32,624 nucleotides of DNA from Catajapyx aquilonaris (lineage: Eukaryota). Where the stretch lies: the NCBI GenBank assembly GCA_000934665.2, contig KZ538236.1, positions 62,001 to 94,624 of the forward strand, in the 5' to 3' direction. Every line of letters begins with the position of its first letter. Position 1 is the first letter of the stretch. Shown here piece by piece: positions 2,677 to 29,833 of this stretch. The translations under genes and the position numbers were made by a program. The notes below the pieces were generated by a model. That model was not told the DNA's origin. It saw only the letters and a list, made by a program, of their open reading frames with translations, and did not search any database.

Positions 2677-3111
2677 AGGTCAAATTACATATTTGTAAAT
2701 AAATGCTCAGAATTACAAAATCACATGATCAATATTACAGATAAATCGATAAAATGTCAGTCATCACGATAAATCAAATAAAAGTAATGGTCAATCGAAG
2801 TTTAAAAAAAATAATCTGTTGTTTCGATCACTTTTTTTGAAAGACGGTAAATTATCACAAAATTAATGTAAAGTGGCTGCCACTATATTTGTACATGAAC
2901 GCAAATTGCAAAATTGTGATGTTTTTTCTCTTACAATCTAAAACGTAACTACATGTCTATCACAGGCTAATTGTTCGTGTAACGTACAGGGATTGCCAAA
3001 AGTTCCGTCATTCCCCTTTACAGACTGTCACACGATAAATTCACACTACTGTACGTACCAGTTGCCTAAAAATGTTGTTGCGATTAATTTCTGATTAAAA
3101 TGCTTTGAACG

Positions 3112-4385: not shown

Positions 4386-4670
4386 TGCGGGGACTCGGTC
4401 AAGACATGCTCGGTACTGTTCTTACAAGCACCCCATGCATTGCAAGGTGCGGCCAGTCCAGCTGGACATTAGTCACTTCATGGCTTAATTAACCTGTAAT
4501 AGAAAATGTTAAAGAGCAGCATGCAGCTTATAGTGTGCATGGGCGCCTCCATCTTGACACGATACTGCCATCTGGGGACAGAAAAGTGTACACACCAAGG
4601 TACACACTACCGTACAAAGTACTGTATTGTAATACAGCAAGTACAGCAAGTAAAAGATAAGAAAGTCAAG

Positions 4671-4830
4671 TGGAGTGGCGCTGCGGTAACATATGTGCCC
4701 ACCGATGTCTTGGGTTCGATCCCAAGCATGGGCTTTCCCCCCTTCATCTCGTGCCGAGTTGGGCCATCTCTGGCTTCGTCTCGGGTGGAATTCCTTGAGA
4801 CTAACCACCCAGGGCAGTTCACAAAACAAC
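4671..4830 (+). mobile_element. Diverged SINE of the same or a sister family (5' half)
   Basis: GGAGTGGCGCTGCGGTAAC...GGGTTCGATCCC...CCCCTTCATCTCGTGC...TCTGGCTTCGTCTCGGGTGG is collinear with the 5' halves of the other two SINE copies; similarity is lost after about 4830. Confidence 0.75.
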
Positions 4831-4894
4831 AATTATCAACGACGCTCGCTGTACCCCGGCGCTACGGAAAAGGACCAACATGTACCATATACCG

Positions 4895-4947
4895 ATATGC
4901 GCCAAATTGTTTCATACCCCCGGGGTATGAAACAATTTGGCGTATAT
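4895..4947. repeat. Near-perfect palindrome (21-bp perfect arms, 1-nt centre)
   Basis: CGCCAAATTGTTTCATACCCC-C-GGGGTATGAAACAATTTGGCG (4900-4942), extendable by 4 bp after one mismatch. Confidence 0.9.
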
Positions 4948-6310
4948 AGTGCACAAGCTTGTAACATCAAAGCAAATGAACTGTCGAGTGTAGCTGCAAC
5001 TGCGCAACACAAAGGGGTTAAATGAAATCGGCATGTTTAGCTACTAAGGCATCGAGGCCCTCCGTTTATTATAATTAGCCCAGCGACACTGGGCTTACAC
5101 TTCTGTTCATGTCAAGGGTCAAAGAAACATTGCACAGAAACTGATTGGCCGCTTTATAATGTACTTGTACTCCAACACCTGGAGGCTCTCTAAAAAAATC
5201 AAAACTATTGAACTACAACCTTGCTTCGATAGCCTCAGCTTGTTTCTTTTTTTGTTCTTTTTTAAAAAACTGATGGAGTTCTATACTCTTTGCAAGTACT
5301 CTATAATTGTGGGGGCGACGGGGGGCATCAAAAGAAACAATATTTGGGGGTTTACAGTAGTGGTGGTAGGGTCTGGGGGGCAGGGCGGAAAATGAAAACC
5401 TTGCTCTTCACACGTACACAGCTCTCGAGTCCACAGCTCCTCTTGGCTTGTCTCCTTCACTTGAGCGCCAAACGTGCGCACACAGCCCCAAATAACTTCC
5501 GCATGAGCCCATTCATGTCACACTGGCTCCACATTTATCTTAAAAAATGGATTTTTCTTTCTTTTTTTTTTGTCTCAGTCAATCTCTCCTTGTCCGTGAA
5601 TCAAAATGGTCGGCGAATCACTCTCTCTCTCTCCCCTGATTTTGCTTACTCCCATTAACCTGTGGCCTCTTTTTCCCTTTCTACTCTCCCATTTTGGGCC
5701 AAACCGCCAACCTCGGGGAGCCCTGCTAAGACACAAAAAAAGCAGGGGGTTGGCAAGACTCTCGCAGTTTTAACCGACCACAAAGATGTCACTCGATCGC
5801 CGGTGAACGCAACACAATCCTGAAATAGAGCTTTGCAGCTTGTTAAAGTGTGTGGGAGGGACGAGGGAAGGTAGGGGGGGCACACACAGGGCAAGGTCGA
5901 GAAAAGAAGAATCCAGATTACCAAACAAGGACGTTACGTAACATCTAAATTAGAAGGGGGTACGGGACAAACGCACGTGCACATACACAAGCAGAAGGAG
6001 TGTAACGTGAACCCAGGAAATACCTACATCCCAAAAAGTTAAAATCTACTGTGGTGATATATGTTTAAAAAAAAAAAAATTAAGTGTGAAATAAAGGAAC
6101 GTTTAAATTGGGTTGGGGCAGGGTGGAGGATTGGGTGTGTAGGGATAGATGATGCTTTTTTTTTGGGGGGGGGGTGCTATACATAAACATCACCGACCAC
6201 TGGGAAACCGAATCCGCCAGTATGGAAACAGGGGTCGGGACGAGCGTCGCATCCCTCATCCAGAGGTCGGCCAATGCTTGGCGTTTAAGCTGTTGACTGA
6301 GGAGCTGTCC

Positions 6311-9300
6311 TCATCTCCTTCTGGGCGATGAGCTTCCTCTTCCCCTCCTCTTGTTAAGAGGCGGACCAGGCCCTCGTTCCCCGCCGCTCCCTTTCCTCCT
6401 CATGCTCTCCTTTGACCTCTCCGCCTTCTCTATCTCAGCCAGGCGACGCTCCCGCTCCACCATCCGCTGGCGACGCATCTCCTCCTTAACGGCAATCTGC
6501 AGACACGGGACAAACTGGCATCATAATGAATGCTGAACACGTCATCAGCTGTAGCTTACCTGCTCTGGCGTGAGAGGTAGCCAGTAGATGCAGGGAGTGG
6601 TCTTGGTCTTTTGAAATAGGTCATCCAGCAGCTTGGCAGGCTGCTCCTCTTCTCGTTTCCGTAGGTGGCGCTCTGTGGATGGAATAAGGAGATGAAACTA
6701 CAATCAAAACCAGACGCAACCGCAACGGGAGCCAAGGACTAACCAGGTCCATCTGTGGGTCCTCCGATTGGACTCCTGCTCCTCCGTCTCTCCCCGCCAG
6801 GACCACTCACTCGGCCCCTTCTCCTCTGCCTCTCCAGCATCTCCTTCTGGAATTCCTTCTCCCCTGGGGTCTTCTCCCCAATCTTCGCCAGGTCCCACTC
6901 ACGGATTGGCATCTGAAATGTAAAAGCCAGCATCCATACTCATGAGTTCCTGCTGTCACCATCACTTATTTAGACACTACTAAGAAACAACGAGCTAGCC
7001 GTCTTGGTCTAAAGAGAAGAATCTGTAAAAGCTCACCATCCTGTCCCTCTGGTCCGCTAGTGAGTTTGGTCCAAGCCGGGCATCCCCCGAGGCAGAAACC
7101 TTCCTCTTGGGGTCGCCCCCTGCCACTCCGACCCCGCCCGAGTTGACCTCCACCTTGAGAGGCTCAGTCTTCCTTGGTATGTTATCAGCGGAGGCCATAG
7201 CCTTGTTGTACTCAAGCTCTTCCCGAGTGGAGAAGTCCACCTGGAGGGTCTTTGGGTTCGAAACGGGCCAGCGGACTCCGTGGAGGGCATGCCGCGTCTC
7301 CTCTGCTTGCTCCTTGGTCTCGTACTGGAATGCGCATGGAAGATTTTAAGCAACCTGGCCAGGAGCAATGCTTCCAGATTGAACTCACCTCCACGAAGCA
7401 CTTTGACTTGATCTTGTCCATCCAAAATGCACCTTCAACCATGGTTCCCGTGCGTGCCAGGAGCTCCTTCAGCTGGTTGATGGTGAAAGGACGCACCAAG
7501 TTGCTGACAAACAGTACGCTGGAGGCCTTATTCTTTGGCGGACTCGGGGCCTTCTGGAGGTTGCGAGCGTCATCAGCAACTATTGAGATCTTCCTCACCG
7601 TCCTCACTGTAAGCAGGCCAAAAAAAACCACAAGTTGTTACCACTCATTCACACTCATGATCCCTGTAAAGTGAAGAAGATCCTGTACCTTTCCTGTCTT
7701 CACTGAGTCCAGGCCTGGAATCCGTTTCTGAATCAGACCCACCCTTGGACAGTTGCTTTTGTAGCTGGAGTGGCGTTTGAGGCAGCTGCGTGGTCTCATC
7801 CGCGTCCTCACTCTCCCCCAGTTTCATTTCATGGACAGGCACGAGCTTCACGTCTGGAATCAGGCCCTGGAAGGAGAAGGGGGCATCTCATCCTGTTTCT
7901 AACCCCGCTTGCCCAATGCCACGGCAGAATCTTACCTTCAGTGAATCAGTTGAGATGGCAAGGGCGGGCTTCTTGTTGGCCCCGACTTTGCTGGCCCCCC
8001 ACTTTCGTTTCCGCACTGTGGAAGGCTGGGTCACGCCCGTGTATGAATCCTTCCTGATCTTTGGAGCAGGTACTCTCTCCTTCTGTGGGGCCAAAAATTC
8101 TCTCATTATTATTCATCATTTCCTGCTGTCTTGCATTGAACAGACTAAAGATGGACAGGCTTTCCCATCAACGCCACTTACCTTCTGGTCTGTACTATCG
8201 TCATTTTTCTCCTCGGAAATGCTCTTAATGAGCATCACCTTCCTCGGGGTGACAGGAGATGGCGACCTGCTGTAAATATTGAGCACGTAAATAACATGCG
8301 ACATAATATTGATAAAAACAGTGCATACAGTGTAGTTATTGAAAGTTGACGGCTTCAATGAAGTACCAACCTGACGTGAATCTCTTCTTGAGGAGCCCGC
8401 ATCTCCACGATGTCTACTGGGGCGTCTGGACTTGCTGACTTCTCCGGGCTGGCAGACTTCTCTGCACCAGCACTTCTGCTGCTACTGGCGCTTCGGCTTC
8501 TGTCCCTCTGACTCGGCTCCCTAATTGGGCTGTGCCTCACCTCCTCTCGCCTGTTTGGACGCTTTTCAGGGCTCACGCTGCTCTTCTTTTCCTGGCTGCG
8601 ACTTCTCTCTCGCCTTTTCTGTTCCTTACTAGGGCTGCGACTCCTGGTTCGCCTTTTCCTTTCCCTGCTAGGACTGCGACTCTCCTCTCGTCTTTTCTGT
8701 TCCCTACTAGGGCTGCTACTCCTCTCTCGCCTTTTCTGATCCCGGCTAGGGCTGCGGCTTCGGTCTCGCCTCTTCTGTTCCCTAGTAGGACTGCGACTTC
8801 TCTCTCGCCTTTTCTGTTCCCGGCTAAGGCTGCGACTTCGGTCTCGCCTTCTCTGCTCACGACTAGGGCTCCGGCTCCCGTCTGGCCTCCTCTGTCGCCT
8901 AGCAGGGCTCCGACTCCGACTTCTGTCCTTCCTTTGCCTCTGCCTAGGGCTCTGGCTTCTACTTCTCCCACTCCTCCTCCTGTTTCGGGTTGGACTTCGG
9001 CTCAGGCTGCGACTGGGGCTACGTTTTCTCCCAAAAGTCCTCTTGCTCGCTGCTTTAGGAATGCCTCCAGTACGCCTTCCACTTCGACTGCGACTTCGGC
9101 TGCTGCTGCTCCCACTACTGCTGCTACTGCTGCTGCTACTGCGGCTTCTGCTGCGACTCGCACTTCTGCTCGAATCTGAGGAGCTGCTCCTACCACGCTT
9201 CGTCTCCTCCTTCTCACCATCAGGTCTGAAAGGGACACGTAAGCATGAAACACAGCTGGCAATTAACTGAAGTGCATGTATTCATATAAATATGGTTGCC

Positions 9301-9829
9301 ATTAAGTAATTCTCAATACCTAACTAATACACAGTGCCAACCAACCGTCCTACTAACCTTTTAGGAGGTTTGTCCGGGATGCTGCTTGTCTCCTTCACAG
9401 GCTGACTTTCCTTTGGCTCTTCCTTCTCCTTTTCTTTAAACTCTTCCACCTTCTTATTGCTCACCTCCTCATGATCTTTCTTATCCTCCGCCACCTCTCC
9501 TGATTTCGTATCCTCCACCTTCTCAACCACTGGAACCTCTAGCTTTTTATCATCTTCCACTGTCTTCACTTCCTCCTCCTTCACCGTCTCTTCCTCCACT
9601 ACCTTCTCTTCCTCCACTACCTTCTCTTCCTGCACTACCTTCTCCACTTCCACTGCCTTCTCCACCTCCACTTTTTCCTCCGCCTTATCCATCACTTTAT
9701 CCTCTTCCTTTTTCTCGTCCCTTTTTTCTTCTGATCTTGCAGAGCTGCCAAGATCCCCTCTCTTCAGTTTCATCCTCCTTCCTGGCAACGGAGTTCGGCT
9801 GACTTCTGGAGGCTTGACGGTGGTTTCCT

Positions 9830-9860
<31 letters not shown>

Positions 9861-12800
9861 CTCCTTCTCTGGTGGCTCAATTTTTGCCTCTTCCTTCAAG
9901 TAAAAATGAAGAAACATGGTTTGTAATATATTACACAATGAATCTCTATGCAAGCAGAAATGCGACACTAACCTTCTCATTTTCCACTGCCTGCGGCGTC
10001 TCCTCAACTGTAACTTTCAAGTCCTTATCCGGCAGTGACCCATTGCTGGAAGGCTTGGCCTGTTCCTCCTTTTTCTCTTCCTTGACCACTTTATCCTCCA
10101 CCGTCACCTTATCCCCTCCCCCTCCTCCCCCTGCCTCGCCTTCAGACGTCCATTGCCTCTTCAGTCGCACTCTGGTTGGCCTCTTCGGGGCCTCGTCAGT
10201 TTTCCCGTCTCCCCCTCCCGACATCAGCGTCACCAATCCGGCCTTCACCTTCTCTCCTCCTCCTCCTCCCTCTCCCACTATCACCTTCTCCTCTTCCTTT
10301 GCTTTCATGCCTTCCAATGCAGCAGGTGATTTTGATTCCTTTGAAATCAATTCCTCTGAGGATGCTTCTGCCTCCAACACTTTGGGCTGGCAAAAAAAAA
10401 ATATGATAATAATTAATTAAAAGTTATCCTGGATAAAATTGCAATGAATGTAATCAATTCAAGAGCAATAATGTACAGGTACTGCACAGCTGCTGTGCCG
10501 CAGATCTATAAGGTTCGTTTGTTAGCAACACTCTGAAACTTTCCTTTCTTGGAATATACTAGTGAACAAAAGGACAAGCGCAAGCATCAATGCCTGTGAA
10601 AAGCAACAAGTTTGGTGTCGTACATGAGCATGAAGAGCACATATTTTCAGACCCTTTCATTCGCAGCAGGACAAATCTCCGGAGTTGAGAAGGGGATACC
10701 CAGAGGCATTTTGAACTGCGTTGGCAGCTTCTTCTAATTCGATGTTGCCATGGTTCGCTTAATGACAATCAAACCAACATCCCACATCAACAGGGAAAGG
10801 TAGGCTCGTAGTATTATCATAACAATCTTCCATATGATGTTGAATGCAACGCTGTGCACCTCATGCTCTGGCATGTAAATTTTTGTCCCTTCAATTGGCA
10901 TGCGGCCAAAATTTCTTCCTATTTCCCACCCTAAATAGACTCACCCTGACAAATCCCACCTGAATTACTTTCCTTGGTCATGACCTGCTCTTAATCACAC
11001 CTGCACCAAACAATAACTAACACTATGGCATTTGGTTCAAATGCGTTTTACAAATGTTCTCATGTGCATATCAATTTTTGCACAAGAAAAAGAGCCTGAA
11101 ATTTAATTAGAGCACAAGTTCAACACATGGCCGCAATTGTAAAAGCTTTATAATCAGTACAAAATTATGTGCAACAGTCTTCACTACAACCGGAAGCTAA
11201 CTTCATAATCACATTTTCATACTATTCCATGTGTCACGTTTTCTGTGTTGAATTTGCAGCACAAGAGATAACTGGCTTTTCAAGTATCAAAATTAGCCAT
11301 AGTATTTACACCAATTTTGCAACAACAATAAGCATTGCGTGAGCATCGGTAACTGTCGATCAAATGTTGAATTATGCCACAAAATATGTAATTTTAACAT
11401 ACCATATCATTAAGCCTACTCGCAGGCACATGTGGTACTGTTATTATGCAACACTATCAGGCAATTCAAGAACTTGGGTCAGCTACTTTAACTACGTGAC
11501 AAAGAGAATATGGTGCAAGATATGGCGGAGGGATATCTGCCTCTTTTTTTTTGTCACCCAATCATTATCATAGTTCACAAGCGTGGCTGAGGCCAGTCAT
11601 GTTTGCAGGTATGGCCGTACTACACCTTACTGGCATCCGCAATGACAAGGAATGTAACATGCCGTCTTGAGCACTTGAGTCAAGCGTGGAGGAAGACGAC
11701 TCACACTGCTGCTTCTGACTGTAGTACTTAAAATGCTGTGATTTGTTTTGAGGCATAAATGGGGCTGGGGAGCTACGTACAACATGGACAGTGCAGCATG
11801 GAGCACGTCACTTTCTCACATTGAAGCTGACTGCGTTCCTAACACAGCAGCTGGAACGGTATCAGACACACCTGTCACACATGTTGACTCTAACGCAACA
11901 AATTCTGTATTCCTCAAAAGTAAACGGTTTACAGCAATGCAAATAATAATAATTCATCACACAATGTGAATATAAGTACTGCCCTGCCTAGATCAATTTT
12001 GCTGAACAAGCAGTGCAAGGCAATCTTTAACTGATCTTTATCTGGGTGAGCTATATTGACAATAGCCACCCTCATGTTATCTAAGCTTGCAGGAAAGGAC
12101 ATTGAAGCGAAAATGTGTCCTTTTTTATAACATGGATTCACAATAATACACGAGACACCCTGTAAGCTTGAATACATGTGTGCTTATAATGTGTTTAATT
12201 ACCTTATTGGAATGTTATAGTACTTTTGCAGAATGTTACATGAACTCAAGGGATCATGATTACACTGCAATAATTTACTTGAATGCTTATGACCAGCTGT
12301 CAGTGAAAAAATATCTGATTATGGATGGGAAAAAGTTTTAGCTTTTTCAAATGCATTTGCACAATTCTGTTATCATCCCTTCTCCATGCATCTGACCAAT
12401 GCATTAAAGAATTCATACAGGGTGTTCCAGATTTGTGGGTCGCTTTTTGATAACTAATATCACACGATGGCAGTTACCAAAAAGTAACCCACGAATCTGG
12501 AACACCCGGTATACATCCTGCCTGTTGCCCAGGGGCATCCCTCTTTGGAGAAAGTAATTTACACCAAAATTGGAAGGACAAGGTGAACAGCAAATTTTGT
12601 ACGTGTGTTTTTGTTGTAGTCAGCAAGAATTTCTTTACATCCAAAACTGATAGCAGTTTTTACGGTTAGAAGTGTGCTTTTGCTAATGGTATGCAAGTGA
12701 ACCATCCCGGAAACAACTTTATTTACAGAAAAGCACCGGTCTTGCCAACTGAATTTTTTCCCGATTACATCCGCAGCATCTCTCCTGTTACGGTTAAGCT

Positions 12801-15800
12801 TCACTCATTTTAATTACCCCAGATGAATTGCTGCCACTTACATTCCGATCCTTAAACTGCAATTCTACACCCCCTCACCTTCAACAGAACTAGTGAAACT
12901 AGTCAAGATCGCTCTATACTTCAGCAATAAATTCCCAAACACAACAGCAGGGGGGTCAAATCTGATTTGTTCCGCCCAAGCGCAAGACTTTCATCTCCAC
13001 ACTGTAAACCGCAAAACATTAAGGGCTGAATCTTCGACGTATCACGCAAACCTGCGTGAGGGTCTGTAACATCCGCGCAAGGTTTGCGCGATACGTCTAA
13101 GATTCAGCCCTAAAAGCACATCACTGGTGAGTCCGAGGAGTTATTCACTACAGGTAGTCCCTGTACACCTTCCGTCTGGGTCTGTGTACGCAAAAAATGT
13201 AAGTCTCTCACGGAACATCAATTTTTAATGATCTTCCGCAGAAGTTTTCAGATGCAGCACTCCAAATGTTGTTGCGTGCACATTAAAAGAGCATCGCTGG
13301 CGAGTCTCTCATGGAACATCCATTTCTAATGGGGGAGACAGAGTGGCGCCGCGGTAACGCGCGCGCCCACGGATGTTAAGGTCCCGGGCTCGATCCCAGC
13401 CCGGGGACTCCCCCTTCATCTCGTGCAGAGGTCGGTCACCTCTGGCTTCGTCTCGGGTGGTATTTCCTACAGCCTAAACCACCTGGGGGAGCTCACTAAA
13501 AATGGCCACACATCAGATGCACTGCACTTGCACATCCCCTCCTGTCATCCTGCCCGTGGGCCCGGGCGATACGTATAAAGGCTCCAATGTATACAACAAA
13601 TAAAGGTCCATGCGATAAACCCTGATAGGGTGAAAGCATTACCCAACCAATTATTTATTATTATTATTATTATTATTTCTAATGCCCTTGCGTTTTTTGT
13701 TACCGAAAAGCATCGGAAGAACATCAATTTTTAATGATCTTCCGATGCTTTTCGGCAACAAAAAACGCATCGCAAGGGCATGGATGTTCCATGAGAGACT
13801 CGCCAGCGATGCTCTTTTAATGCGCACGCAACAACATTGGAACTTCTACGCCTCCTATTCCGATGCAATAAACACCCATTGCCTGCTTTTTTTTCCCCAT
13901 GTCTGCCTACACTGCTTGTGTATGCATTTCCCATCTGGCCCACCACGGAACACCACACATTTTTGTCCCTCCCCATAGCGGTGCAAAGGAGCCCTAGTGT
14001 TTGCGACACACGTGGACCTTCCGCCCAGGGGCCGCCCCCAGTCTCCCCCGCCCCCTCCTCCTTCCCCCCATTCCATTTGGGAAAAAGAGCCCATCCCTCC
14101 CCCTTCCCCCCGACTTTGGAATATACCTTTCCTAGCAGCGCACCCCCGGCCAGACGCACCGACGATCGGGATCCGAGTCCTTCCAGGCTCCCCCGTTCCT
14201 TTTTGTGCGGGTCAGGCTCGAGATGCACGGCAAATAATTTTCCCTTTTTCTTTTTCCCCCAACGGAGTTTCACTAGTGTGGTTAGCCGGGTTCTAGTTTA
14301 TCGAACGCCGGACTGCCATTGTGAGGAGCGCATGCGCAGTCGGTCTCAAGAGGGGGGGGAGGGAAGGAGGGCAGANGGGCGATCGAAGCGCCGCCGCCGT
14401 CATATTGATTAAACGAATGTGCGCCAAATTCGAACACTAATTAATCGCAATTAGAGAGGCACTTACCTCAGCAGGCTCTTGCGCTCTGTCCGGCATACTC
14501 AGCACCCCTGTCAATCACACACCGGTTAATTACATGTCAATTAGGCGATGAGTGCTTTGTTGTTATTTACCTGATTGGTCCTTTGCCATGGTCAGGTCCT
14601 CCGCCTCGTTTCCGACTGTGTAGGCCACCGATTTGGTCAGGACTTCCTCCGCCACAGGCTGGGTTTCGGACACTGCGGGTGACTGGATCTCCTGCGGTTT
14701 GGGCAGTTGAACCTCCTGCGGCTTGGCGGGTTCCTCTGTCATTTCCGTAGAGTCGGGTGGCTCGTTCCTTTCCGGTCTAGGTGGTTCAGGGTGCGGCTCT
14801 GGCTCTTTCTCAACCTCCTTCGCGAGTACCTCAGATGTGTTTGCAGGCTCTTCTGCTGAGGGTTGTGAACTTTCAGGAGCAGGCGATGGTTCCTCAATCT
14901 GTTCTGTCGTAACTTTCAGGTCCAACTTCGGTGTTTCCAACGTAGTTGCTTCCGATGGCATCGGTTCCTTTTCATGTGGTTTCGCAGGCATGTCAGATGG
15001 CTTCGGCGACACTGCTTTGGGCGTGGCCTCCGACGGTTTTGGCTTTTCTGCCGCTGCTGCAGCTTCAGGCAGTGATTTTTTAGGTGTGTCAGATGGAGTT
15101 GAAACAAGTTCAGTCACTTCAGCAGGTTTGGGCTCTTGCAAAGGTGTGGGTTCTTCCGCAGATGCTGGTGCAGGCAGCACAGGCATAGCCTCTGCCGATT
15201 TAGGCAATATTTCAACACTCTCGACTGTTACCTGTGGCAGCAACGGTGACAGCTTAAGCTTGGGAATTGCTCCCGCCGCTTGCGTTTCAGAAGGTTTGTG
15301 TAACGCTTCTGGTTTTGGCTTCACTTCCAGAGGTGCGGGGACCACCGTCACTTCTGAAAGTTTGGCCACGGATTCAAGCAGTTTGGGGAACATGTCCAAT
15401 GGTTTAGGTGTTACGAGTGATGGGGTAGGTGTCTGTATTTTGGATGTGACTGAATCAGACGGTTCGGGTGTTAGTCCAACGGGTAATTCAGATGCGACTT
15501 GCTTGGGTGCAGACTCCGGAATTTTGCGTATCAATGCTACTGGAGCATTGTCTGATTTTTTGGACACCACCAATTCCACTGGTGTAGCCGTCACTTCGGG
15601 CATCAACAATTCAACAGGCTTAACAGTCACTTCTGGTTTTCTCACCGTCAATTCAACTGGCTTAATCGTTACTCCAGTCTTTCTGGGCGACAATTCAACT
15701 GGCTTAACAGTCACTTCAGGCTGCTTGGATGCCAAGTCAATTGGCTTAATTGTTACTTCGGGATGCTTTGGAGTCAATTCAACTGGCTTACTTATCGCTT

Positions 15801-18434
15801 CAGGAGAGGTGGCCGCCAATTCAACAGACTTGGCGGCAACTTCCGAGACTCTTTCGGCCAGTTCGGGTGACTTTCCTGCTGCCGACGACAACTTGGGTGC
15901 AATCCCAATTTGCGCCTTCTTGGCCATTGCCCCGACCTTCACTTTCTGAACCACCTCCACCCCAGCATCGTCCTGAAAATCAACCCCCTGACTCCTTACC
16001 TCTACTTTCTTCTCTGCCCTTCGCTTTGGGCTTTTCTGCTCTGCCTGCCTGGTGAGTGCGATTTCCAATAAGCTTGTCGACTCATCTTCAGTAGTGACGG
16101 CAGGACCATTCTTGCCCTCTGCCTTACTAGGCCGTCTTGTCCTTGGTGATTCCTCACCTTCTGACGGCTCCTGAGACGCCGAGGAAGACGCGCCCCTCCA
16201 GCTTGACCTTCGCCTTCGTGCCCTTCGCTTAGGCTCAGCGTCATCCCATGAAGGGTCACTATCTTTGCGCGGCGAGGTCTCATCAGCCTCGAGGTCCTCC
16301 CCTACCTCCGAGTCCTGCGACATCGGAGGTTCCAAGTGACGCCTCCGGATTCGTGGGCTGCGTCTGGAGGTGCGATTCTCAAGGACCTCCTTGCTTGGGG
16401 TGGTCTCATCTTCCTCTTGGGTTGTTTCCCCTGCACTTTGTTCTGACTCACGTCTTTGCTCTGAAGGATTAAGTTACATACAGGTTAGCATTAGTGTGGA
16501 AATACAGCGCAGATTATCAGCTTCTACCTTCACAAAAATTAACTGGCCACCTCTCTGGCTTAGACCAAAACAAGACACTGTTGAGATTCATATCCTTATC
16601 CTTACTATTTGAAACCAACATCTTAAGACATGGATATATGCGATATGAAGCATAATTTTTAAGAACAATTATATTACATCATCAGGTAATGACTGGCTCT
16701 TGTTTTCGCCTGAATTATACTCGAGCCTTCTCCAATGTTGTTAAATAATTTTTTAATGCGGCCAGAAAAGAGCTTGCAAAGTAATTCTGGAACAACGCTC
16801 CCAGAATTGCAGTGTTTTTGCAGAGAATATTTTACAACCCTCACCCATGCGTTAAGCCCCTCACATATCATACAAGTGCAATCTTAAATGGTGCGCAAAA
16901 ATGTTAGGCAGCCATGAAAGTTACTCAGACATGAAGTGCAAGGGCAATGAGCACATTGCACTTTTATCACTTAGAAAATATTCGCACCCCACTGACAACG
17001 ATGATAATTTCTCACATATGATCAACGTCTCACGCCATACCTTCGAACTGTTTCTTGGCCTCCCTCTGAACCTGATACAACGCCTGCTGCGACGCCAAGT
17101 ACTCCCTAATGAAGTCATTTTCCTCCGCCAGCGCCGAATCTTGCATCTGCCGATTATTAAAACCCATTTAGTTCAGGCCATCAAAATAAATTAAAAAACC
17201 ACCACTCTGAAAAATACTCACGGCCAGGTTCGGAACATGATCTTCATCTTGCGAACACGCCGCTCGAGACTTCTCCAAATTCAAATACTGCAACGTAAGA
17301 ACATACAATCTCACTAATACTAATACCACCACTATAACCATTATTATAACTATTACCATGACTATCCATGACATTTATATCATATTCATCCCTTTCATTA
17401 ACCTCTGCGTGGCCTGACCATCCACCAGAGTGTCATTTTGTAGGTCATACGAGGGGGACAGGGGCAACCTGTACTCCGCTGGCTACCCCTCTATGGGATT
17501 ATTTTGCCGTGAAGTAACCATGACTATCCAATTATTTATTTTATTTATTTTGACAAGTTTTAATATAGTTCATATTTTGGGGTAGCTTGCGGCTTCCGCC
17601 ATCGCTGACTAACATATGGAAATGTCATGAAGGTGATGATGATGACGATGATCATGACTATTAGTTATTACGAGTACAGGAAGTCACCAGTTTACGAACG
17701 GCGATCTGTACTTACGAACGGGCTCCCAACGGGCTCAGCTGCAGGATAGTTTATAATATTATTCCTTCACTTCTGCGTACATTGAGCGACAACAAGTTGT
17801 ACATAAAAGCTGTACAATAATTGGGAAATTACGTTCTTCATGTATGTAAACAGACACATGTGACTTTAGCGGTTCGTTGGGAGCTGCATTTTTTTTCGCT
17901 GTACACATGCGCTGTATCCTCAGGGATCTGAGTTACGTACAAATCCGGCTTATGGACATTTTCAGCAGCGTAACCCCGTTCGTACACCGGTGACTAGTAT
18001 TAGCATGATTATATTATAACTATTGCTGTAACTATTGTGATTGTAACCATTACGACTGGTGTATTTACAATGTATTGTCATAACGGTTGTGATATTGACA
18101 GTAACAAGTTGATTAGGTGTCCAGCACATGTGCACACCGCGGGTGTCAAAAAGAGAGTGTGTGGCACCCTCCCGGTGCCGCCAGCGACCGAGTGCGAGGT
18201 CCCCCGGGTGCTGGAAAGGAATGAGCCTACGTGTAACGACCGCAATACCGTTTTGAGCCTCTCGACCAGGTCTTTCTTGCTTCCGGACTTGGACTGGCCC
18301 CTCTTCTCCAGCTCTATCTTGAGGTCCACGACCCTGAGGGAGGAGACGGGCCGGCCGTCGATGGTGAGCTCGCCCTGCCCCATCGGGGAAGAGGAGGCGG
18401 AGGAGGCAGCGGCCCCAGAGCTTCTGTCCGCCAT
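6311..18434 (-). CDS. Acn: Acinus (apoptotic chromatin condensation inducer in the nucleus; ASAP/EJC-associated splicing factor), about 1826 aa, 16 exons
   Basis: Exons (minus): 18434-18249, 17287-17222, 17146-17041, 16460-14571, 14507-14467, 10386-9973, 9893-9358, 9225-8371, 8269-8182, 8082-7936, 7866-7689, 7606-7389, 7324-7037, 6912-6744, 6672-6560, 6496-6311; all GT-AG and phase-consistent (5481 nt). SAP domain [31 protein letters not shown] region; RKRKWG...[36 protein letters not shown]...[12 protein letters not shown]...[21 protein letters not shown] motif [22 protein letters not shown]. Confidence 0.93.
8592..8870 (-). repeat. Coding 39-bp tandem repeat (about 7 units) in the Acinus RS region
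   Basis: Plus-strand units such as GGCTGCGACTTCTCTCTCGCCTTTTCTGTTCCCTACTAG recur with 39-nt period; they encode 13-aa units like [13 protein letters not shown]. Confidence 0.85.
12418..12509. mobile_element. 92-bp MITE, Tc1/mariner-type ends
   Basis: TIRs CAGGGTGTTCCAGATTTGTGGGT / ACCCACGAATCTGGAACACCCGG (2 mismatches in 23), flanked by TA on both sides (12416-17, 12510-11). Confidence 0.8.
13023..13110. mobile_element. 88-bp MITE, PIF/Harbinger (Tourist)-type
   Basis: TIRs GGGCTGAATCTTCGACGTATCACGCAAACCT / AGGTTTGCGCGATACGTCTAAGATTCAGCCC (2 mismatches in 31); TAA target duplication at 13020-22 and 13111-13. Confidence 0.82.
13261..13841. repeat. Foldback (long inverted repeat) element interrupted by a SINE
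   Basis: Left arm 13261-13323 plus 13684-13720 is the reverse complement of right arm 13738-13841 (e.g. CATTAAAAGAGCATCGCTGGCGAGTCTCTCATGGAACATCCAT vs ATGGATGTTCCATGAGAGACTCGCCAGCGATGCTCTTTTAATG). Confidence 0.85.
13331..13674 (+). mobile_element. tRNA-derived SINE, full-length copy 2
   Basis: A-box-like GAGTGGCGCCGCGGT, B-box-like GGGCTCGATCCC, (TTA)n tail at about 13650-13675, direct repeat ATTTCTAATG at 13322-13331 and 13675-13684; matches copy 1 along its length. Confidence 0.9.
14328..14434. promoter_or_regulatory. Candidate internal promoter in Acinus intron 5
   Basis: NRF1/Ewg-type palindrome GCGCATGCGC (14328-14337) and TGCGCC-AAA-TTCGAA (14420-14434), resembling the CDE-CHR-like motif of the main promoter, in a CpG-rich stretch. 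No transcript evidence. Confidence 0.4.
15560..15870 (-). repeat. Coding degenerate 42-bp (14-aa) repeat in the large Acinus exon
   Basis: Translation: [75 protein letters not shown]. Confidence 0.85.
17682..17995. mobile_element. Putative MITE of about 314 bp in Acinus intron 1
   Basis: AGTCACCAGTTTACGAACGG (17682-17701) and CCGTTCGTACACCGGTGACT (17976-17995) are inverted repeats with 18/20 identity; target duplication not clear. Confidence 0.55.
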
Positions 18435-18610
18435 TTTCGAACGACTTCCTCTTCTTCTCTCCAGTAGCTGCGAGGAGAGCTTCCCCTTGCTACCAACAGG
18501 CGGCCAGGAGGACAAGGCCTGCCAACCGACACGGGACGCCGCACATTCAGGCACACCAACCCCCCTCCCCCTCACTTAAAAAAACTTAATTAAAGCTTAA
18601 TTAAACGCCC

Positions 18611-20089: not shown

Positions 20090-21301
20090 ATGGCAGACAG
20101 CAGCAAGAAGCTGGAGGAGGCCCTGGAGCACATCAGGACTGCTGAGAAAAGGTCAGGAGGTTAAGCCAGGTCAGGTCGAGCGTAATCAACAAACTGACAT
20201 GTCCGCAGCTTGAAGACGGGGCTGTTGAAATGGAAGTCTGAATTTGGCTTGGCGGCGGATGAGTACAACGCGGCTGCTACGTGCTTCCGCAGCGTCAAGT
20301 CGTACCAGCAGTGTAAGGAGTGTCTGCTCAAAGCGGCCGATTGCTACAGGCAGAACAGGTCGCTCTTCTCCGCAGCCAAGTGAGTATGCAACATGCGTGT
20401 TCAACCGCAGTCATGTAACGCTCCCCCCGTTGCGCTTACAGGTGCTTGGAACAGGCTTGCTTGGTTTGCAAGGACATGAACGACCTGAAGGAGATTGGGA
20501 ATCTGGCCAACCGTGCTTGCCAGATGTACCAGGAGCATGGATCGCCCGACACCGGAGCAATCTCTCTGGACAAATGCGCTAAGATGATCGAGACCCAGTA
20601 CCCCGAGACGGCTCTCCAGCTGTACAAGCGAGCAGCCGACGTTGTTTCAGTACGTTCGCACCCAATATGTACACATGCAGTGTTTAAAAACGGTGCGATA
20701 TTTCAGATTGAAGACAGGCCTCGCCAGGCTGCGGAGTATGTGTGCAAGGTATCCCGGATTCTGGTGAAGCTGCAGATGTACGACCAGGCTGCCGACTCGA
20801 TCCGGCGTGAGATCGGATTGCACCAGACATCCGAGAACCTCCCGTTCATCGGACGACTGACTGTGGCGCTGGTGCTAGTCCAGCTTGCTAGGGGCGACTA
20901 CGTGGCTGCCGAAAAGGCCTTCCGAGAGCTCGGAAACTACTGCGAAGTCGAGGAGGTACATCCGCCTTTTTGATAACACGTTGCGATTCCAACTAATTGT
21001 TGCATCGCAGGTCCAAACGTTGGAGCAGCTGCTGCAAGGGTACGACGAGGAGGATCCGGATCAGGCCAGACGCGCCCTTCACAGCCCGTTTATCCGACAT
21101 ATGGATGTGGAGTATTCCCGGCTGGCTCGTGACCTCCCGCTGCCCGCCGGGATATCGCAACCGCTGAAGCCTTCAGTGCGGGAGAATGCGGCTCCCAGTT
21201 ACGTGTCGCCCAGTGCAGCCGCAAAGGGCCAAGGAGCCGCCGAGGGAGGCCAGCCAGCCGACGGGGGCGACGATGAAGACGAAGATAATGGGCTGTGCTA
21301 G
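20090..21301 (+). CDS. NAPG: gamma-soluble NSF attachment protein (gamma-SNAP), 326 aa, 5 exons
   Basis: Exons 20090-20151, 20209-20379, 20442-20649, 20707-20955, 21011-21301 (981 nt). KLEEALEHIRTAEKSLKTGLLKWK...AADEY..AATCF; EHGSPDTGAISLDKCAKMIE; LEQLLQGYDEED; SPFIRHMDVEYSRLARDL; acidic tail ending GLC*. Confidence 0.95.
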
Positions 21302-22920: not shown

Positions 22921-24166
22921 TCACACAGAACTCGTCTTGGGCAAGCTTCGAGAGCGGAACTCCTCATCAGTCGATCCCTCTTTACTGCCACCCCCTCTTT
23001 CCGCGCTCCCTCCTCCACTACTCCCAGCCCCGTCGTGCTTGTGGTGGTACTGCTGGAAACATGGCACGATACACAGATTGGTCTTGCACTCGGGACAGCA
23101 GTACTTGGTCTTCCGCCTCAGTATTCTCCCGTGGTCGTCGATGGTGTTCCAGCAGAAATTGCAGCCCAGTGCTGGACCTTGTCGCAACACAGGGCAGTGA
23201 CCCGACCTCTGAAGCGACTCTGCTGACTCGGTTGACCTTTGGTGCTGCAAGGTGGGAACCGGTGAGGGTGACGGAGACCGTGCAGGTGCAGGTGAAGGGT
23301 GAGGTACGGTTGTGACAACCACAGAGGACGAAAGGTCCTCCGACTTTGGTCTGATGTGGGCCAGCGGTTTCGGAGTGGTTAAGGTGGTTACAGACGGAGT
23401 TGGGGCTGCAGATGAAGATGGGTTGTCAGCCGAGACCACACGGACCAGTGGGAAGTGCTCGATCACAATAGAGGGGCTGCGCTCTCGCATGGGCGTGTCG
23501 GGACTACTGGTGACACTACTGGTCGTGGCTGGCACAACTCGCACCTGAAGCGGAAGCTTGCTCATTCCCTGCAAGACGAAGTTAATTAACAGTCAGCTAC
23601 GGCCGATTCATTTCCAGCCCATACCTGTGCTAGCTGAAAAGTGGGCTGGGTCTGTGCTAGCTGAATGTGGGGTAACGACGGCTGCGAGTGCTGCCTCTGC
23701 ACCATGGTTGCTCCGGACGCTGACGTGGCTGCGACTACAGAAGCTGCGCTTGAAGGCAGAGGCTGCGACCTCTGCTTCTGCAACGTGGCGGTGTGGGTGG
23801 CCGGAACTCCACTGGTGGGCACAACCAAGTAGGACGGGGATCTCCCTTGACTGGATGAAGGTCCTCCGCTTGTGGTGGTGGTGACAACAACACTGGGGCC
23901 CAAGGGAAGTAAGGGCGGAGGTGTTGGGGTTCGACGGGCAGACATCGGAGGTTCTGAGAGATGTCGTTCGATTCGTGGCGGGGCTGTCAGCAGGTGAGTT
24001 GTTGAAGAAGACGACGGAGAGGACGATGGGGACGAAGGACCGATTGAGAAAGAAGGAGGGTCGTCCAAGGATGAGGTGGTCATGAGAGAGTGGGCCATCT
24101 CGCTCTCTTTCTTGATACGTGGCTGCCGAATCAGGGTGCGGCCTCGCTTCGAACGCAACAAGGAAC
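22921..24166 (-). CDS. BtbVII: BTB gene alternative terminal exons C1 and C2: S/T/P-rich linker plus piggyBac-like cysteine-rich zinc finger (isoform about 675 aa)
   Basis: C1 24166-23625 (acceptor TTCCATGCAG| phase 1, donor CAG|GTATGG), C2 23568-22921. HCPVLRQGPALGCNFCWNTIDDHGRILRRKTKYCCPECKTNLCIVPCFQQYH. C1 has no ATG of its own near the start and fits the common exons' phase. Confidence 0.8.
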
Positions 24167-25299
24167 CTGCATGGAATCACGGAAAGTGCATGGGAACATT
24201 TCCACAAAAAACTGTTTATGATGACTAATTTATTAACTTGCAATGACAAAAGCGCATTTCTTATACGGAAGCTCACTCAAGGGAAGAAAAAAATGTCACA
24301 CCAGCATAGTCCGATGCTTCACGTTATCCTGAGATACATTCATTTCGCAACTCACGTCTCTAAAAGAACGTCACACACCTGATGATTATCTTGGGCTTTC
24401 CAATACTGATTTGATCAGCCAACCAGGTTATTTAAAAAATGCATAGCTCTTCAAAACAAAATAATATAAAAACAATCAATCTACATAGCTCCCAGCATTT
24501 AATAAGTGGTGCTCCACATAATAATTGTCATTTTGAACAAGCACAGTTATAAATTAAATTACGGCGTCCCTACAAAATAGGCATGTCATGTTCAAACTAG
24601 TTCAAACCCTCCTCTGTTATGTCAACAAGAATAAAGGAGGCCTGTATAGCAACGTCGGCTGCTTGTTCACGCAACAATTGAACCAGTGCGGCAGTTATGA
24701 ATTTGCATAAATCCAATTTGCATAATGTCAGAGCTATTCAGAATGTACAAGATATTACTCGTAACAAGCTCGTCACTAATTTTGAAAATAAATCAAGCGT
24801 ACTCGCTGCCTTGTAAATGTTACTTTCGACAGCACAACAATGCGACCAAACGCAGTTTTCTCTCCTCATGCACCGAGGCATTACCAGTATAGTCATGAAC
24901 GGCCGCGATGACTTGGCATCATTGAGGTAATAAAACCTGAATAAAAAGTTGCATTAACTTTCCTTGAGGACAAAATGGCTTCACTTTCACGATTGCATAT
25001 AATTGCATTCTCTTACTTTATCTGTCAATGAACTTGCTCAGGTTGCAATATTTTTCCGCAATAATTTACGCTATGGCACTGGGTATAATAAACATGTTAA
25101 ACATTTTTAAAAACCCTTTCAGACGAACACTGTTGGGGAAATTTCAACACCTGAAAGGAGCCTTTTCTTGGTGGTTTTTGACAATAGCACCAAGGCTTCA
25201 CTGGAGAACATGTTCCAGCAAATTCTCATAGAACATTTTTCCATTGCGACCAACACACAAATGTCATCATTTCACCTGCACCGCTCACGTGCGCACGGA

Positions 25300-25691
25300 T
25301 CATGAGTTAGAAGCCATCTGCGAGTGGAAGAACCTCCTGAGCTGTTCTTGCGGCAGGTTGGAGTTGACCAACCCCACGTATCTCCAAAGAGTGGACGTCG
25401 GCACCTGGTAGCTCCTTGCCGCCTGCATCACATTGGTCCTTTCCATCCACACCAGCGTTAAAGCCGCAAGCATGTTTCCGCTCAGCTCCCTTCCGTGCAC
25501 CATCAGCTTCATTCCCGAGGACGTAGGGACGAGGCAGGCTTGCGGTGGGACTTGCTTGATTCGGTTGTAGGCCCGCTTTGGTGCGTACGTGCTGGCAGCG
25601 GTCGGCTTGGAGGAGGAGGAGGAGGAACGCCCCTTTGGCAAACGGGCTGGGTCGCGTACCACCCCGCACTGGGTGCTCATTTCCCCCCACC
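25300..25691 (-). CDS. BtbVII: BTB gene alternative terminal exon B: second, divergent Pipsqueak-type HTH (isoform about 409 aa)
   Basis: Acceptor TCCTCCTCCCCACACAG| in phase 1; GWGEMSTQ...SGNMLAALTLVWMERTNVMQAARSYQVPTSTLWRYV fits Psq/HTH pattern M..AL..V......V..AA..Y.VP.STL.RY; GC-rich island in AT-rich DNA. Confidence 0.75.
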
Positions 25692-27035
25692 CTGTGTGGG
25701 GAGGAGGACACACGGCTCAGTCCCTGTCTGTTCTCCCTATTCCCTAGCGTTCACAAGCCCTATTGCAAAAACATGTCACAAAGCAGTTGAGCATAACGAA
25801 GGAGAGAAAAAAAAGTACGTTGCTTCTCAATTATTACTGACGCATGGTCAGATCACATAGAAAAAGTCCACCTTTGCAAAAATTCGCCATATGCAAAAAC
25901 GTATCGCTATGTAACGCAGCTGATACACGTACGCTTTTGCATACCCACACGATATATTAAGAACTCGCTATCTATCAATACAATACTCTGCACAAGGTGA
26001 TTATATTTACATGCAAACCTATCCGTATCTCGTGAGTGTCAAGCCACAGTACTTAATTAATAAATAGCCATGCACCATAAAATTATGTGGCCCAACACAC
26101 TGAATTTGCAAACATACACACTAATTTACATTTACCTTCTTTTTTCTTTTTTAAACTACAATTTAAATTAATAACTGCTTTCTATAATGTGACCTGAATA
26201 CTGTTAGGCGGTTATTACAATTACAAACAATGCCCCCAGCTATGTACACGATGCACAAAGTTTCCACCTGCTTAAAATTTTACTGGCTTGCAATAAAAAT
26301 TAAAAAATTAAACCAGGGAGATGAAAAGTTTGAAAATCTATTCCGACTGAAACTGTTGTATAGTTGAGGTGTACCTGAGTGGCTGGTATTTATTATTTTT
26401 TTAAATTTATTTATTTTTTAATTGTTTGTACTCTACGGGGCCTGAGGTGAACAAACTTTGCTTGGAGTGGGAGCCACTCCAGTGTTAATATTGAGGTAGA
26501 GGAGGCCTGGGGATCCTTCCCATCCTTGTGACCATGGTCGTACAACAAACAACTACCTCTCTAAATACGACTAAAACGCTCTCAGGGATGTGGCACTTGG
26601 ATCTCGTTAGCAATAATTAAAATGCTCACCAAAGGCAGGACGACAGGTAAATTACATGCGACTAGAATATACTTTTCACTACAAGTGTGCACACTCGTAT
26701 GGCTGCAAAACTGCTCTTTTAAGTTAATACTGTAACACTGGCTTTAAAATGCTAGTGATTGCTGAAAGCGTTATCCTAAAATTAAAAAATAGCCGCAATC
26801 ACCGGACAAATGCGTCTGAACCTGAAGATGTCGCAAACACCTGCAGAATATTGTACTTGGAAGTATCTGAACCGTCACAGCAAATCATATTTAAAAAAAG
26901 GACCAACCTACGGTAAGGAAGTTGTAAAATCGCAGTTCGAGAGAAGCACAAAATAAGACTCCTTACAAAAGTAGAGATTCTAGCTTTGCCATTTCACAGT
27001 TCTGCAATAATTTGATCAACACTCACATTTAATTA

Positions 27036-27157
27036 CCGTATTTGACGGCGTATACGACCCCCATTTCAGCAGATCATATTCAGTTTAAAAAGAGTACGCA
27101 TTGTATTATCGCATGTAAGAGCCATTTTTCGAGGAACAAATACGCCATCAAATACAG
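27036..27157. mobile_element. 122-bp degenerate MITE with CCGTATTT ends (Tc2-like)
   Basis: CCGTATTTGACGGCGTAT and ATACGCCATCAAATACAG are inverted repeats (16/18); TA on the left, TG on the right. Confidence 0.6.
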
Positions 27158-27467
27158 TGGACACCTTTTTTTTCAATGTTGCACTACTTGCACCCTCTCT
27201 CGGTGGGTATGAAAGTAGCACAGTTTAAGTAATTAATCCCGCACAACCTAAAAATGCACCACCTACGAAGCGATGCGTCTTGAACTTTTACTACAGTTCA
27301 GCACCGCCTGCCTCTCTTTGCCACATCCCTGCAATTTTCAAGAAGGCCTGTTTCGCTAAGAATGGCCACCTTCAGCGCAATGAAAGGAAAAAGAAACATT
27401 TGACTGGCCACATCCAAACTAGGGCAAGCAAACACAACCCCCATTTTTCTCTCTCTCTCAAGAGCAC

Positions 27468-28213
27468 CTAGTTTGAGTAGAGACTAGCCACATCCGAGTA
27501 TGGGAGCAGGACCTCTGAAGCGGATGCCTCTGCCCCTGCCCCTTCCCCACCGCCGGACTCTCCTCCGCCTACCCCTTCGCCCTTAACCTTGGGCACCTCG
27601 GCCACTGCCAGTGAGCTCTCAAGAGCCCTCATAATGTCGTCCAGCCTCGCTCCTCCCCCTCCTCCCCAAACCCCCTGCTGCTGTTGCTGCTGTTGTTGCT
27701 GCTGCTGCGGCTGGACAGGCCCTGCGGTTGCCACACCGGCCTCCTCCCTCCTCCTGATGCTGGCCCTGGTGACGGGATACCCCCTCTTGCGGTACTCCAG
27801 CCACAAGGTGCGGCTGTTGACCCCGAAGATCCTGGCCGCCTTGCAAAACCCAATCCCTCCAGACCTCACCGCTTCCAAGGCGCGAAGGAAATTCTCGTCC
27901 GACAGCGGGTTGGTCCGCTTGCGGCGCTGGGGCTGGGACTGTGGTGCGGGTGGGGTGGAATGAGGGCTTGGGGTTAAGGGAAGGGGCGGCTGTTGCATTG
28001 GGTTGAGGGCAGAGGTCAACTGTGGGGTGGTATCGCTTGTGCCGGTGGATGTGACAGTCACAGTTGAGGTCTGGGATGGATTTGTGGAGGTCGAGGGTGG
28101 GTCGAATTTTAGGTGTTGCAAGTGGTGGTGGTGGTGGTAGTAATCGGACAGCCCGTAGGTGGTGGGGGAGGGGCCCATGCCAGAGTAGCCGGGCCTCACC
28201 AGCCACTGAAACC
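27468..28213 (-). CDS. BtbVII: BTB gene alternative terminal exon A: Pipsqueak-type HTH, poly-His and poly-Gln (isoform about 527 aa)
   Basis: Acceptor TTGCTTTTTATAG| in phase 1; GFQWLVRPGY...RRKRTNPLSDENFLRALEAVRSGGIGFCKAARIFGVNSRTLWLEYRKRGYP; stop at 27468. Confidence 0.85.
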
Positions 28214-28639
28214 CTATAAAAAAGCAAGGGGAAAGAAGAGGAAAAAAGAGTGCGGCTCGAATCAGAAATCAATTTATGCAAAGAAATAAAGGGGAGGCCA
28301 GGGCTTTTGGGCCACACTCGTTTTTTTTTTTAAAAAAGCTTTTTAATCATGAAGCTAACATGGCATGGGCCACTTAATTGCAATTAACAAGAATATCCCC
28401 CACCACACAACAGGCAGTCCGGCACAAAAAAGGTTCAAGTGGGTTGTATTAGGACAAACAAGGATTTCCTGACCTCGCCACTAACACTCAGAGTTTGCTC
28501 ACTAAATTTCCCTTGAGTTTCTTTTTTTTTTTTTTTTGCTCCCTAAAGTAACCGGTGTGCAGTGTTTGAACATATGTCAAAAAGTGAACGCTTGTTCCTA
28601 CACCACAGCTGTTTTTTTTTTTTCAAATTTACGCCTTAC

Positions 28640-29833
28640 CTGGGGTTGGACTGGGTGAAGCAGCCGAACCTGCGTTGACCTCCTTGATAGCCGGGGTCTC
28701 TAGGGACGCCTGGATAAAAAAGAAGCAAGCGCAAGGTAAAGAATATGCTTCCACTCCCATTACAAACGCTGCACAAGCCGCAAGAAATAACCAAAGTTTA
28801 ATATGAAGCATGATTACTTCGCCCGATGCTTCTTATCACTCTTTGGTACTCTTAACTAATACACATATTTGTCTTGACACTCACGTTAGGTGTGGTCTTG
28901 TCTTCAGTTGCACTTTCCAGCGACCCATCCCGATGCTCCGAATCTAGACTCCTCTCGTGTGATGTTACCTCCGACCCATCATGAGATACATTTAGAGGTT
29001 CCGCCTTGATTATGAGTGTTGAATTATTCTCCTGCACCTCGCATGAAGTCTCATTGTTGTTGCGTTCTGCGGATTAAGTCAGATTAATTAGTACGTGTGG
29101 CGTACATGTGACATGGTGTCATACCGGCAGAGCTGGACCGACTTCCGGTTGAGGACTTTCTGATCCTCTTTCTAGAGGTGGGTGATCCGCACGGAGAAGG
29201 GCTTCTGCGGCTCCCCTCGACTCCTGACTCCTGTCCGATGGTATCGGAGCGTGCGGAACCCCAAGAGAGCTGGTGTGTCACCGAATCATGGGAAGACTCC
29301 AGGGAGGATCCCTGCCTCTCACTAAGTTTGGATTTCATCACCGGGAGACTTTCCTCAGGAACTTCAGCAAGACCCTTGATCTTCAACATCTCGGCCGTCT
29401 ACAAATGCCATGGGAAATCAAATTATAACGTTACTTCTTTCAATGCTAGGTCGTAACTTACCTTCAAGACATTGCTGAGTTGCTCCTGGGTTACATTGAC
29501 CTCTCCGTAATACATGAAGTCCACCACTGTTTGCAGATCCTTATACTTCACATCCTTGAGAATCACAATCGGATGCTGGCAGGGGTTGATGGCAAATAGG
29601 TTCTGCAAAATGATGTGCGTAAGGACACCGCTTGACAATTAATCAATCACGAGGCCACTGACCTGGAAGTATGAGCTGCAGGCAGAGAGAACGACCTTAT
29701 GCGCCTGGACATGTTTCCCCTCCGCAGCTAAAGTGACGTCCACTAGTGACTTGCTGTTAAGGAGGCTCGCAAACACGGACACAAAGTTGGGCTGGTGGTT
29801 GTTCCACCTCAGGCAGAACTGTTGGCTGGCCAT
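28640..29833 (-). CDS. BtbVII: BTB/POZ (tramtrack-group) transcription factor, common exons; BTB-protein-VII-like
   Basis: Exons 29833-29663, 29602-29462, 29398-29125, 29066-28885, 28709-28640 (838 nt, ends in phase 1 at CAG|GTAAGG). QQFCLRWNNHQPNFVSVFASLL...LVDVTLAAEG...QAHKVVLSACSSYFQNLFAINPCQHPIVILKDV...VDFMYYGEVNV.QEQL..VLKTAEMLKIKGLAE matches my recollection of Drosophila BtbVII. The BTB call is firm; the orthology is from memory. Confidence 0.85.

Follow-up and report, generated by a model that had tools for sequence, protein, structure and literature searches.

We analysed a 32,624-nucleotide (nt) stretch of the Catajapyx aquilonaris genome (contig KZ538236.1, positions 62,001 to 94,624; hereafter the window, in whose coordinates all positions are given), in which the minus strand carries a gene for a BTB-domain protein with several candidate terminal exon units. 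An exon map, checked on the sequence and by script, revealed a well-formed gene between 29833 and 22921, with the start codon ATG at 29833 and a predicted protein that begins MASQQFCLRWNNHQPNF. The five common exons have AG/GT at all borders. The coding part of exon 1 (29833-29663) holds the FCLRWN motif of the Tramtrack (TTK) type and the first half of the BTB domain and ends in phase 0; exon 2 (29602-29462), likewise with AG/GT borders, supplies the second half; exon 3 (29398-29125) comprises the end of the BTB domain (TAEMLKIKGLAE) and a Ser-rich linker, ending in phase 1; exon 4 (29066-28885) continues the linker from a phase 1 start to a phase 0 end. Exon 5 (28709-28640), of 70 nt, is the last shared exon; it ends in phase 1, after the first base of a codon, and the donor GT follows at 28639-28638. 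Single N bases occur in the window at 14376 and at 30035, the second of them some 200 nt upstream of the start codon of the BTB gene.

Behind exon 5 and on the same strand lie terminal unit A (28213-27468), a candidate unit B (25691-25300) and the two-exon unit C (C1, 24166-23625; C2, 23568-22921). Each of the acceptors at 28213, 25691 and 24166 is preceded by AG and resumes the frame in phase 1, with pyrimidines at 18, 15 and 14, respectively, of the 20 bases before the AG. The units terminate in stop codons of their own (TAG at 27470-27468 for A, TGA at 25302-25300 for B and TGA at 22923-22921 for C), and the joined coding sequences of 1584, 1230 and 2028 nt, with one terminal stop each, would encode proteins of 527, 409 and 675 amino acids (aa) for A, B and C. 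The initial annotation had described a last common exon ending in phase 1, three GC-rich downstream units with phase-1 acceptors and their own stops, and joined coding sequences that are all multiples of three; these observations were confirmed, the last of them by script. The GC content of 500-nt windows reached 0.65 in A, 0.51 in B and 0.58-0.59 in C, compared with 0.33-0.43 in the introns. Candidate poly(A) signals are present behind every unit. For A, ATTAAA lies 435 nt and 1046 nt and AATAAA 1053-1074 nt beyond the stop; for C2, ATTAAA lies 459 nt and AATAAA 1322 nt beyond it. The intron between exon 5 and unit A also contains long A/T homopolymer runs (28312-28336, 28520-28540 and 28603-28627).

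The identity of the gene was evaluated from the common exons. The BTB profile PF00651 was matched by exon 1 with 42.2 bits and by exon 2 with 29.8 bits (cut-off 20.5), and the exon 1 translation QQFCLRWNNH fits the FxLRWN motif with Cys in the position of x; this motif defines the Tramtrack group of arthropod BTB proteins, x being described as hydrophilic (PMC11426971). In BLASTP comparisons the gene was collinear with insect proteins carrying both BTB and HTH_psq domains over common residues 1-251 and beyond, and the common region showed 50-57% identity over approximately 250-295 aa to the best of them. Over the BTB part alone, identity to the best proteins of this architecture rose to 75-83%; these include proteins named BTB-protein-VII (P0191 and P0194), which, together with Drosophila proteins of 744-751 aa, matched the common region (75-80% over the BTB) as well as unit A. 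Drosophila BtbVII combines a TTK-type BTB N terminus with an HTH_psq end, as does the gene in the window. The source names of the matching proteins vary (tramtrack, lola, bab-like). Judged by similarity matches, the locus appears to be an arthropod orthologue of Drosophila BtbVII; the original assignment to a BtbVII-like TTK-type BTB gene is supported by the BTB profile scores, the FCLRWN motif and the matches to BTB-protein-VII.

Unit A encodes an HTH_psq domain (PF05225, 53.1 bits; cut-off 20.4). The unit matched 74 longer proteins, 69 of which contain BTB and HTH_psq domains together, and its start, G-FQW, corresponds to the conserved G-[FLI]-QW start of P0157, P0191 and P0194. By this comparison of sequences, unit A is the canonical end of BtbVII orthologues.

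Unit C consists of two exons separated by an intron of 56 nt (23624-23569, with GT at 23624 and AG at 23569). Exon C1 begins in phase 1, ends in phase 0 and carries a KRGRxLIRQPRIKKE motif with [RK]Q-x-S-x-P repeats, and exon C2 encodes a Cys/His finger (H..CxxC..CxxC-x4-C-x3-C-x4-H) followed by a KTSSV tail. With C2 as query, 125 insect and crustacean proteins matched at E<=0.001, the finger core being 70-88% identical. Among the 120 matches listed, a BTB domain was found in three (P0087, P0089 and P0093), of which two come from aphids and one from a phylloxera. These RefSeq/JGI models, two of them RefSeq 'isoform X3' entries (P0087 is named 'GAGA-like isoform X3' and P0093 'bric-a-brac 2-like isoform X3'), share with the predicted isoform C the BTB domain, the KR..R..VRQP..IK motif and the finger HCP..GPALGC..CWNT..RRKTKY.CPEC; all three are computational models, and their BTB is more divergent, with 54% identity to the window gene for P0089 compared with 75-83% for BtbVII-type proteins. 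A metagenome scan yielded 44 loci with the finger, and BTB exons lay upstream on the same strand in 8 of them. In three of these eight, a single uninterrupted frame runs from the BTB to the finger (L018, 598 codons; L022, 577 codons; L029, 737 codons), and the predicted isoform C aligned with L022 over residues 2-401 and with L018 over residues 4-316, in both cases across the junction at residue 280. Predicted proteins that join the BTB to a C-type end thus exist in other arthropods.

These data bear directly on whether unit C could instead be a separate downstream gene that is never joined to the BTB exons. Stand-alone annotation of the unit is common across genomes, most of the C2 matches among the 120 listed being named hypothetical or 'PiggyBac transposable element-derived protein 4', and this counts against a joined end. 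Homology of C1, however, starts at unit residues 2-9, upstream of the first ATG of the exon, and the conserved motif KRGRTLIRQPRIKKE (KRGR..RQPRIKKE) lies between the acceptor at 24166 and that ATG, directly behind the phase-1 acceptor; C1 would therefore be translated only after splicing to an upstream coding exon. The uninterrupted BTB-to-finger frames of L018, L022 and L029 and the BTB-finger isoform models of aphids and phylloxera point the same way. A further indication comes from the fly: FlyBase merged CG11494 and CG14956 into BtbVII (CG43365) as 'alternative exons' (BtbVII-RF) (PMC4528329), and we treated this merge as equivalent, with CG14956 as the candidate finger unit. A literature search on CG14956 returned nothing relevant, only papers on human methylation probes. 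On balance, a separate gene C is very unlikely, and unit C is supported by the sequence comparisons as a strongly conserved arthropod module, so that ends A and C are both backed by comparative data.

Several further features of unit C were noted. The segment 22921-24166 on the minus strand contains repeats of the [RK]-Q-x-S-x-P type (IERHLSEP, LQKQRSQP and VQRQHSQP), and 22 of the 25 aligned C sequences share a C-terminal tail of the form K-[TSMN]-x-[ST]-[IVMLF]; we take these repeats and the tail to be candidates for phospho-dependent (14-3-3-type) or PDZ-type binding motifs, which they resemble. In Armigeres subalbatus the finger occurs at five or more separately named loci (P0099, P0103, P0104, P0109 and P0110), which suggests a lineage-specific expansion. 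A protein of Artemia franciscana (P0120, 252 aa) has no BTB but combines HTH_psq (24.9 bits) with the finger (zf-Tnp_2, 21.3 bits).

The initial annotation had assigned a different putative DNA-binding domain to each unit. The HTH_psq domains of A and B score above the cut-off and the finger of C remains below threshold; a set of three DNA-binding ends is more than the data bear out. No Pfam match above threshold was obtained for unit C. The closest profile, zf-Tnp_2 (PF13842), gave 15.0 bits for the window finger against a cut-off of 24 and 14.2-21.3 bits for the orthologues scanned. In an alignment of 25 sequences (A1) with 35 invariant columns, including H18, C19, C30, C33, C52, C55, C60, C64 and H69, every member matched zf-Tnp_2 at E<=0.1 (best E 3e-4, all sub-threshold), and 23 of the 25 also matched zf-HIT. 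The nearest cluster in the ESM Atlas was an arthropod 'PiggyBac transposable element-derived protein 4 (Fragment)' at 0.90. Compared by eye, the finger is similar to the variant cysteine-rich domain (CRD) of PiggyMac (Pgm) and PGBD proteins in its upstream His, CxxC, CxxC, C and C..H, and differs in the last spacing, C-x4-H here and CxxxH in the variant (PMC8086355). It also lacks the transposase core that is attached in piggyBac-family transposases. A profile search against solved structures returned only ZNHIT3 (E 0.021) and HIT1 (E 0.2) and no piggyBac chain, and the AlphaFold2 (AF2) model of the finger, with a mean predicted local distance difference test (pLDDT) score of 51.8, was too poor for a structure search. 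Taken together, the finger resembles a two-zinc-type Cys/His domain that may be related to the C-terminal CRD of piggyBac-family transposases. The CRD of Trichoplusia ni piggyBac is reported to bind a specific DNA motif (PMC5861402), and that of Pgm, the only tested member of the class that the finger resembles, to bind no DNA and to contact histone H3 weakly (PMC8086355); because members of the family differ in this way, a DNA-binding role for C is an assumption.

The arrangement of the units was then compared among relatives. A unit of type A followed by one of type C was found in gene models of Drosophila gunungcola (P0171), Anopheles (P0173 and P0176), Cloeon (P0140) and Aricia (P0175) and in P0185, with a BTB also in front in four of these six; in the Drosophila model P0171 the finger unit lies downstream of the HTH exon, as in the window. 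Five of the models (P0171, P0173, P0140, P0175 and P0185) were considered as single proteins with both helix-turn-helix (HTH) and finger, and this was rejected, as they keep the normal C terminus of A and then read on into C; such concatenated models look like prediction artefacts and were therefore used for synteny only. In genomic DNA, L007 and L008 show an A-like HTH, then C1, then C2. Many TTK-type BTB factors are described as having isoforms with different DNA-binding domains (PMC11426971). The mixing of HTH and finger ends had been called unusual; it looks instead like the conserved state of BtbVII, already present in FlyBase and RefSeq models, and is therefore no oddity of this window. 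What sets the gene apart from BtbVII is B, an additional candidate HTH_psq unit that lies between A and C.

To this picture a scan for HTH_psq domains in six loci, covering all plus-strand open reading frames (ORFs) of at least 55 aa (137 ORFs), added both agreement and dissent. L008, L011 and L014 have HTH_psq ORFs upstream of the finger, and no such ORF of at least 55 aa was seen in that position in L032, L034 and L036. A second scan detected none in 30 of the 76 ORFs of L025, 16 of the 42 of L033 and 14 of the 16 of L006. In L025, L032 and L034 the BTB exons are followed by the finger within 2-3.5 kb with no HTH_psq ORF of at least 55 aa seen between them (for L025, among the 30 of 76 ORFs scanned). 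Some arthropods may accordingly have a BTB-finger gene or paralogue that lacks a nearby HTH end.

Unit B was assessed as a candidate third end. It encodes a divergent HTH_psq domain (PF05225, 29.0 bits; cut-off 20.4), and only in the proposed frame does its codon usage resemble that of the host gene: the log-likelihood per codon is +0.13 there and -0.16 and -0.36 in the two alternative frames, and the GC content at third codon positions is 0.76. The AF2 model (mean pLDDT 76.6) reaches block values of 80-96 over residues 51-129 and predicts a beta-hairpin, a three-helix HTH and an extra helix, with three helices at residues 71-111 having a block pLDDT of 89-96. Searched with Foldseek, this model had no match reaching E<=0.001; the best E was 0.36, and the LCoR HTH was matched with probability 0.89 and E 0.46. 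No ESM Atlas lead for unit B reached 0.9; an arthropod HTH_psq cluster, at 0.83, was among those obtained. Its sole specific relative is P0196, with 39% identity over 72 aa (pairwise E 3e-13), which shares the STLWRYVG motif and the tail; unit A gave no match to P0196 (E 10).

This evidence leaves room for a different account of unit B, in which it is an independent small gene nested in the intron, or else a young ORF without a splice to 28640, and the locus would have two ends, A and C. An in-frame ATG stands four codons after the proposed acceptor of B (near 25679), so that a separate small ORF is possible, and P0196 is a stand-alone call of 85 aa from a 2061-nt contig. No longer protein with a B-type domain behind a BTB was found, none matching unit B at E<=0.001; among 1.84 billion representatives there were only three matches, and two of these were generic psq-repeat proteins. 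A B-type exon was detected in 0 of 44 related loci by tblastn (E<=10) and a motif scan, and none was seen in the insect models scanned. The phase match of B is by itself about a one-in-three event. All of these points weigh against a spliced unit B. On the other side, the best pyrimidine-rich acceptor (15 of 20) falls exactly in the needed phase, eight codons after the upstream stop, the codon usage of B is that of the host gene, and L014 contains two helix-turn-helix ORFs between its BTB exon and finger unit, one of them recognised only as HTH_28 (E 4.5e-4, below the cut-off), so that additional HTH units in this place are seen in another arthropod locus. A separate, unspliced unit B is therefore a serious possibility, if somewhat short of an even chance; that B is a genuine, lineage-restricted third end of the BTB gene is, on the sequence features described, an even bet. 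Of the three-ended system originally proposed, ends A and C are upheld by comparative data, and end B is left without a sign of joining the BTB exons.

L014 itself (417-5039) holds the BTB exon, the HTH_28-type ORF at 2629-2991, an ORF with an HTH_psq domain of 34.5 bits at 3190-3546 and a finger unit in a single exon with a phase-1 acceptor at 3721. Both of its HTH ORFs are A-like and not B-like, and the locus would be a parallel three-unit layout.

Considering these data together, we regard it as likely that the locus is a BtbVII orthologue in which one donor is cis-spliced to alternative last-exon units, A, C and perhaps B. The five common exons would encode a BTB multimerisation module and a linker, and cis-splicing would connect the single donor at 28640 to one of several last-exon units, all of which have separate stops and, presumably, separate poly(A) sites. 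Isoform choice would then reflect competition of the proximal acceptor and poly(A) site with the distal ones. The A product would be a BTB and HTH_psq protein of 527 aa, the C product a 675-aa protein in which the BTB is followed by conserved basic and Ser-Pro motifs and the finger, and the B product a BTB protein of 409 aa with another, divergent HTH_psq domain. TTK-type BTBs form hexamers and heteromultimers (PMC11426971), and by analogy the isoforms may co-assemble through their BTB domains.

Against this reading stand several considerations beyond those already given for units B and C. Phase-1 frames of at least 100 codons are opened by 39 of the 449 AGs between 28639 and 21700, and frames of that length can also be reached from an AG in all three phases, so phase compatibility alone is no more than chance; the weight of the exon model lies in the domains and the homology, not in phase arithmetic. 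The joins 28640 to 28213, 25691 and 24166 are predictions for this species, CG14956 is only a candidate for the fly finger unit, and the loci in which the finger follows the BTB without an HTH_psq ORF mean that the two-ended state is not universal.

The alternative ends could also be attached by trans-splicing of separately transcribed 3' units. This rests on analogy with the TTK-type BTB loci lola and mod(mdg4), which trans-splice and, like the window, combine a shared 5' part encoding the BTB with alternative 3' units for different C-terminal domains (PMC11426971). Those two loci have approximately 20-30 ends of one class each (C2H2 or FLYWCH) and use trans-splicing, whereas the locus in the window has two or three ends of two classes, arranged collinearly and with no sign of trans-splicing. 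All units lie on the same strand within 6 kb and none on the opposite strand, so cis-splicing suffices, and a search of the introns for a motif or repeat common to the sequences upstream of the three acceptors returned only T/A runs and short chance matches. The suggestion of trans-splicing, which had been raised by the same analogy, is thus unsupported here, and we consider the process extremely unlikely at this locus.

The window contains other genes. A gene with a soluble NSF attachment protein (SNAP) domain (29.8 bits) occupies 20198-21301 on the plus strand, its 3' end facing that of unit C. A large minus-strand gene at 6995-18575 encodes a SAP domain (35.4 bits) at 18078-18575; one of its exons (8355-9281) is rich in Arg/Ser and others in Lys/Glu/Pro. 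We take it to resemble Acinus or SAFB-like proteins, the SAP domain alone being confirmed. An exon of the DNA primase large subunit gene (PF04104, 105.6 bits) lies at 3112-3891 on the minus strand.

The cis-spliced BTB locus is, for the most part, an ordinary example of a known design, in which A and C are conserved and already annotated alternative ends. The two-ended BtbVII design, with HTH_psq and a piggyBac-type finger, is widely conserved in arthropods and not peculiar to the window. No article about a BTB protein that carries this finger came up in literature searches, and none of the 15 papers found to mention BtbVII had the name in its title or abstract; the finger isoform appears to be unstudied. 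The stand-alone 'PiggyBac transposable element-derived protein 4' fragments annotated in arthropods are probably 3' exons of a BTB gene. A more speculative and rather improbable extension, drawn by analogy, is that the C end is an ancient, stand-alone domesticated piggyBac-family finger, recruited before the split of crustacean-like lineages and insects, that may act as a reader of chromatin or protein, not of DNA, in mixed BTB complexes, with B as a third subunit type. Since TTK-type BTBs form hexamers, the gene would then assemble mixed complexes in which HTH_psq subunits pick the DNA site and finger subunits read or tether chromatin, as in the contact that the Pgm CRD makes with histone H3, and B would contribute a third type of subunit, specific to this lineage and differing in the specificity of its HTH. 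Unit B, if confirmed, would be a recent addition to the conserved pair of ends, and the locus is a compact and tractable example of a single multimerising module with different chromatin-targeting ends.

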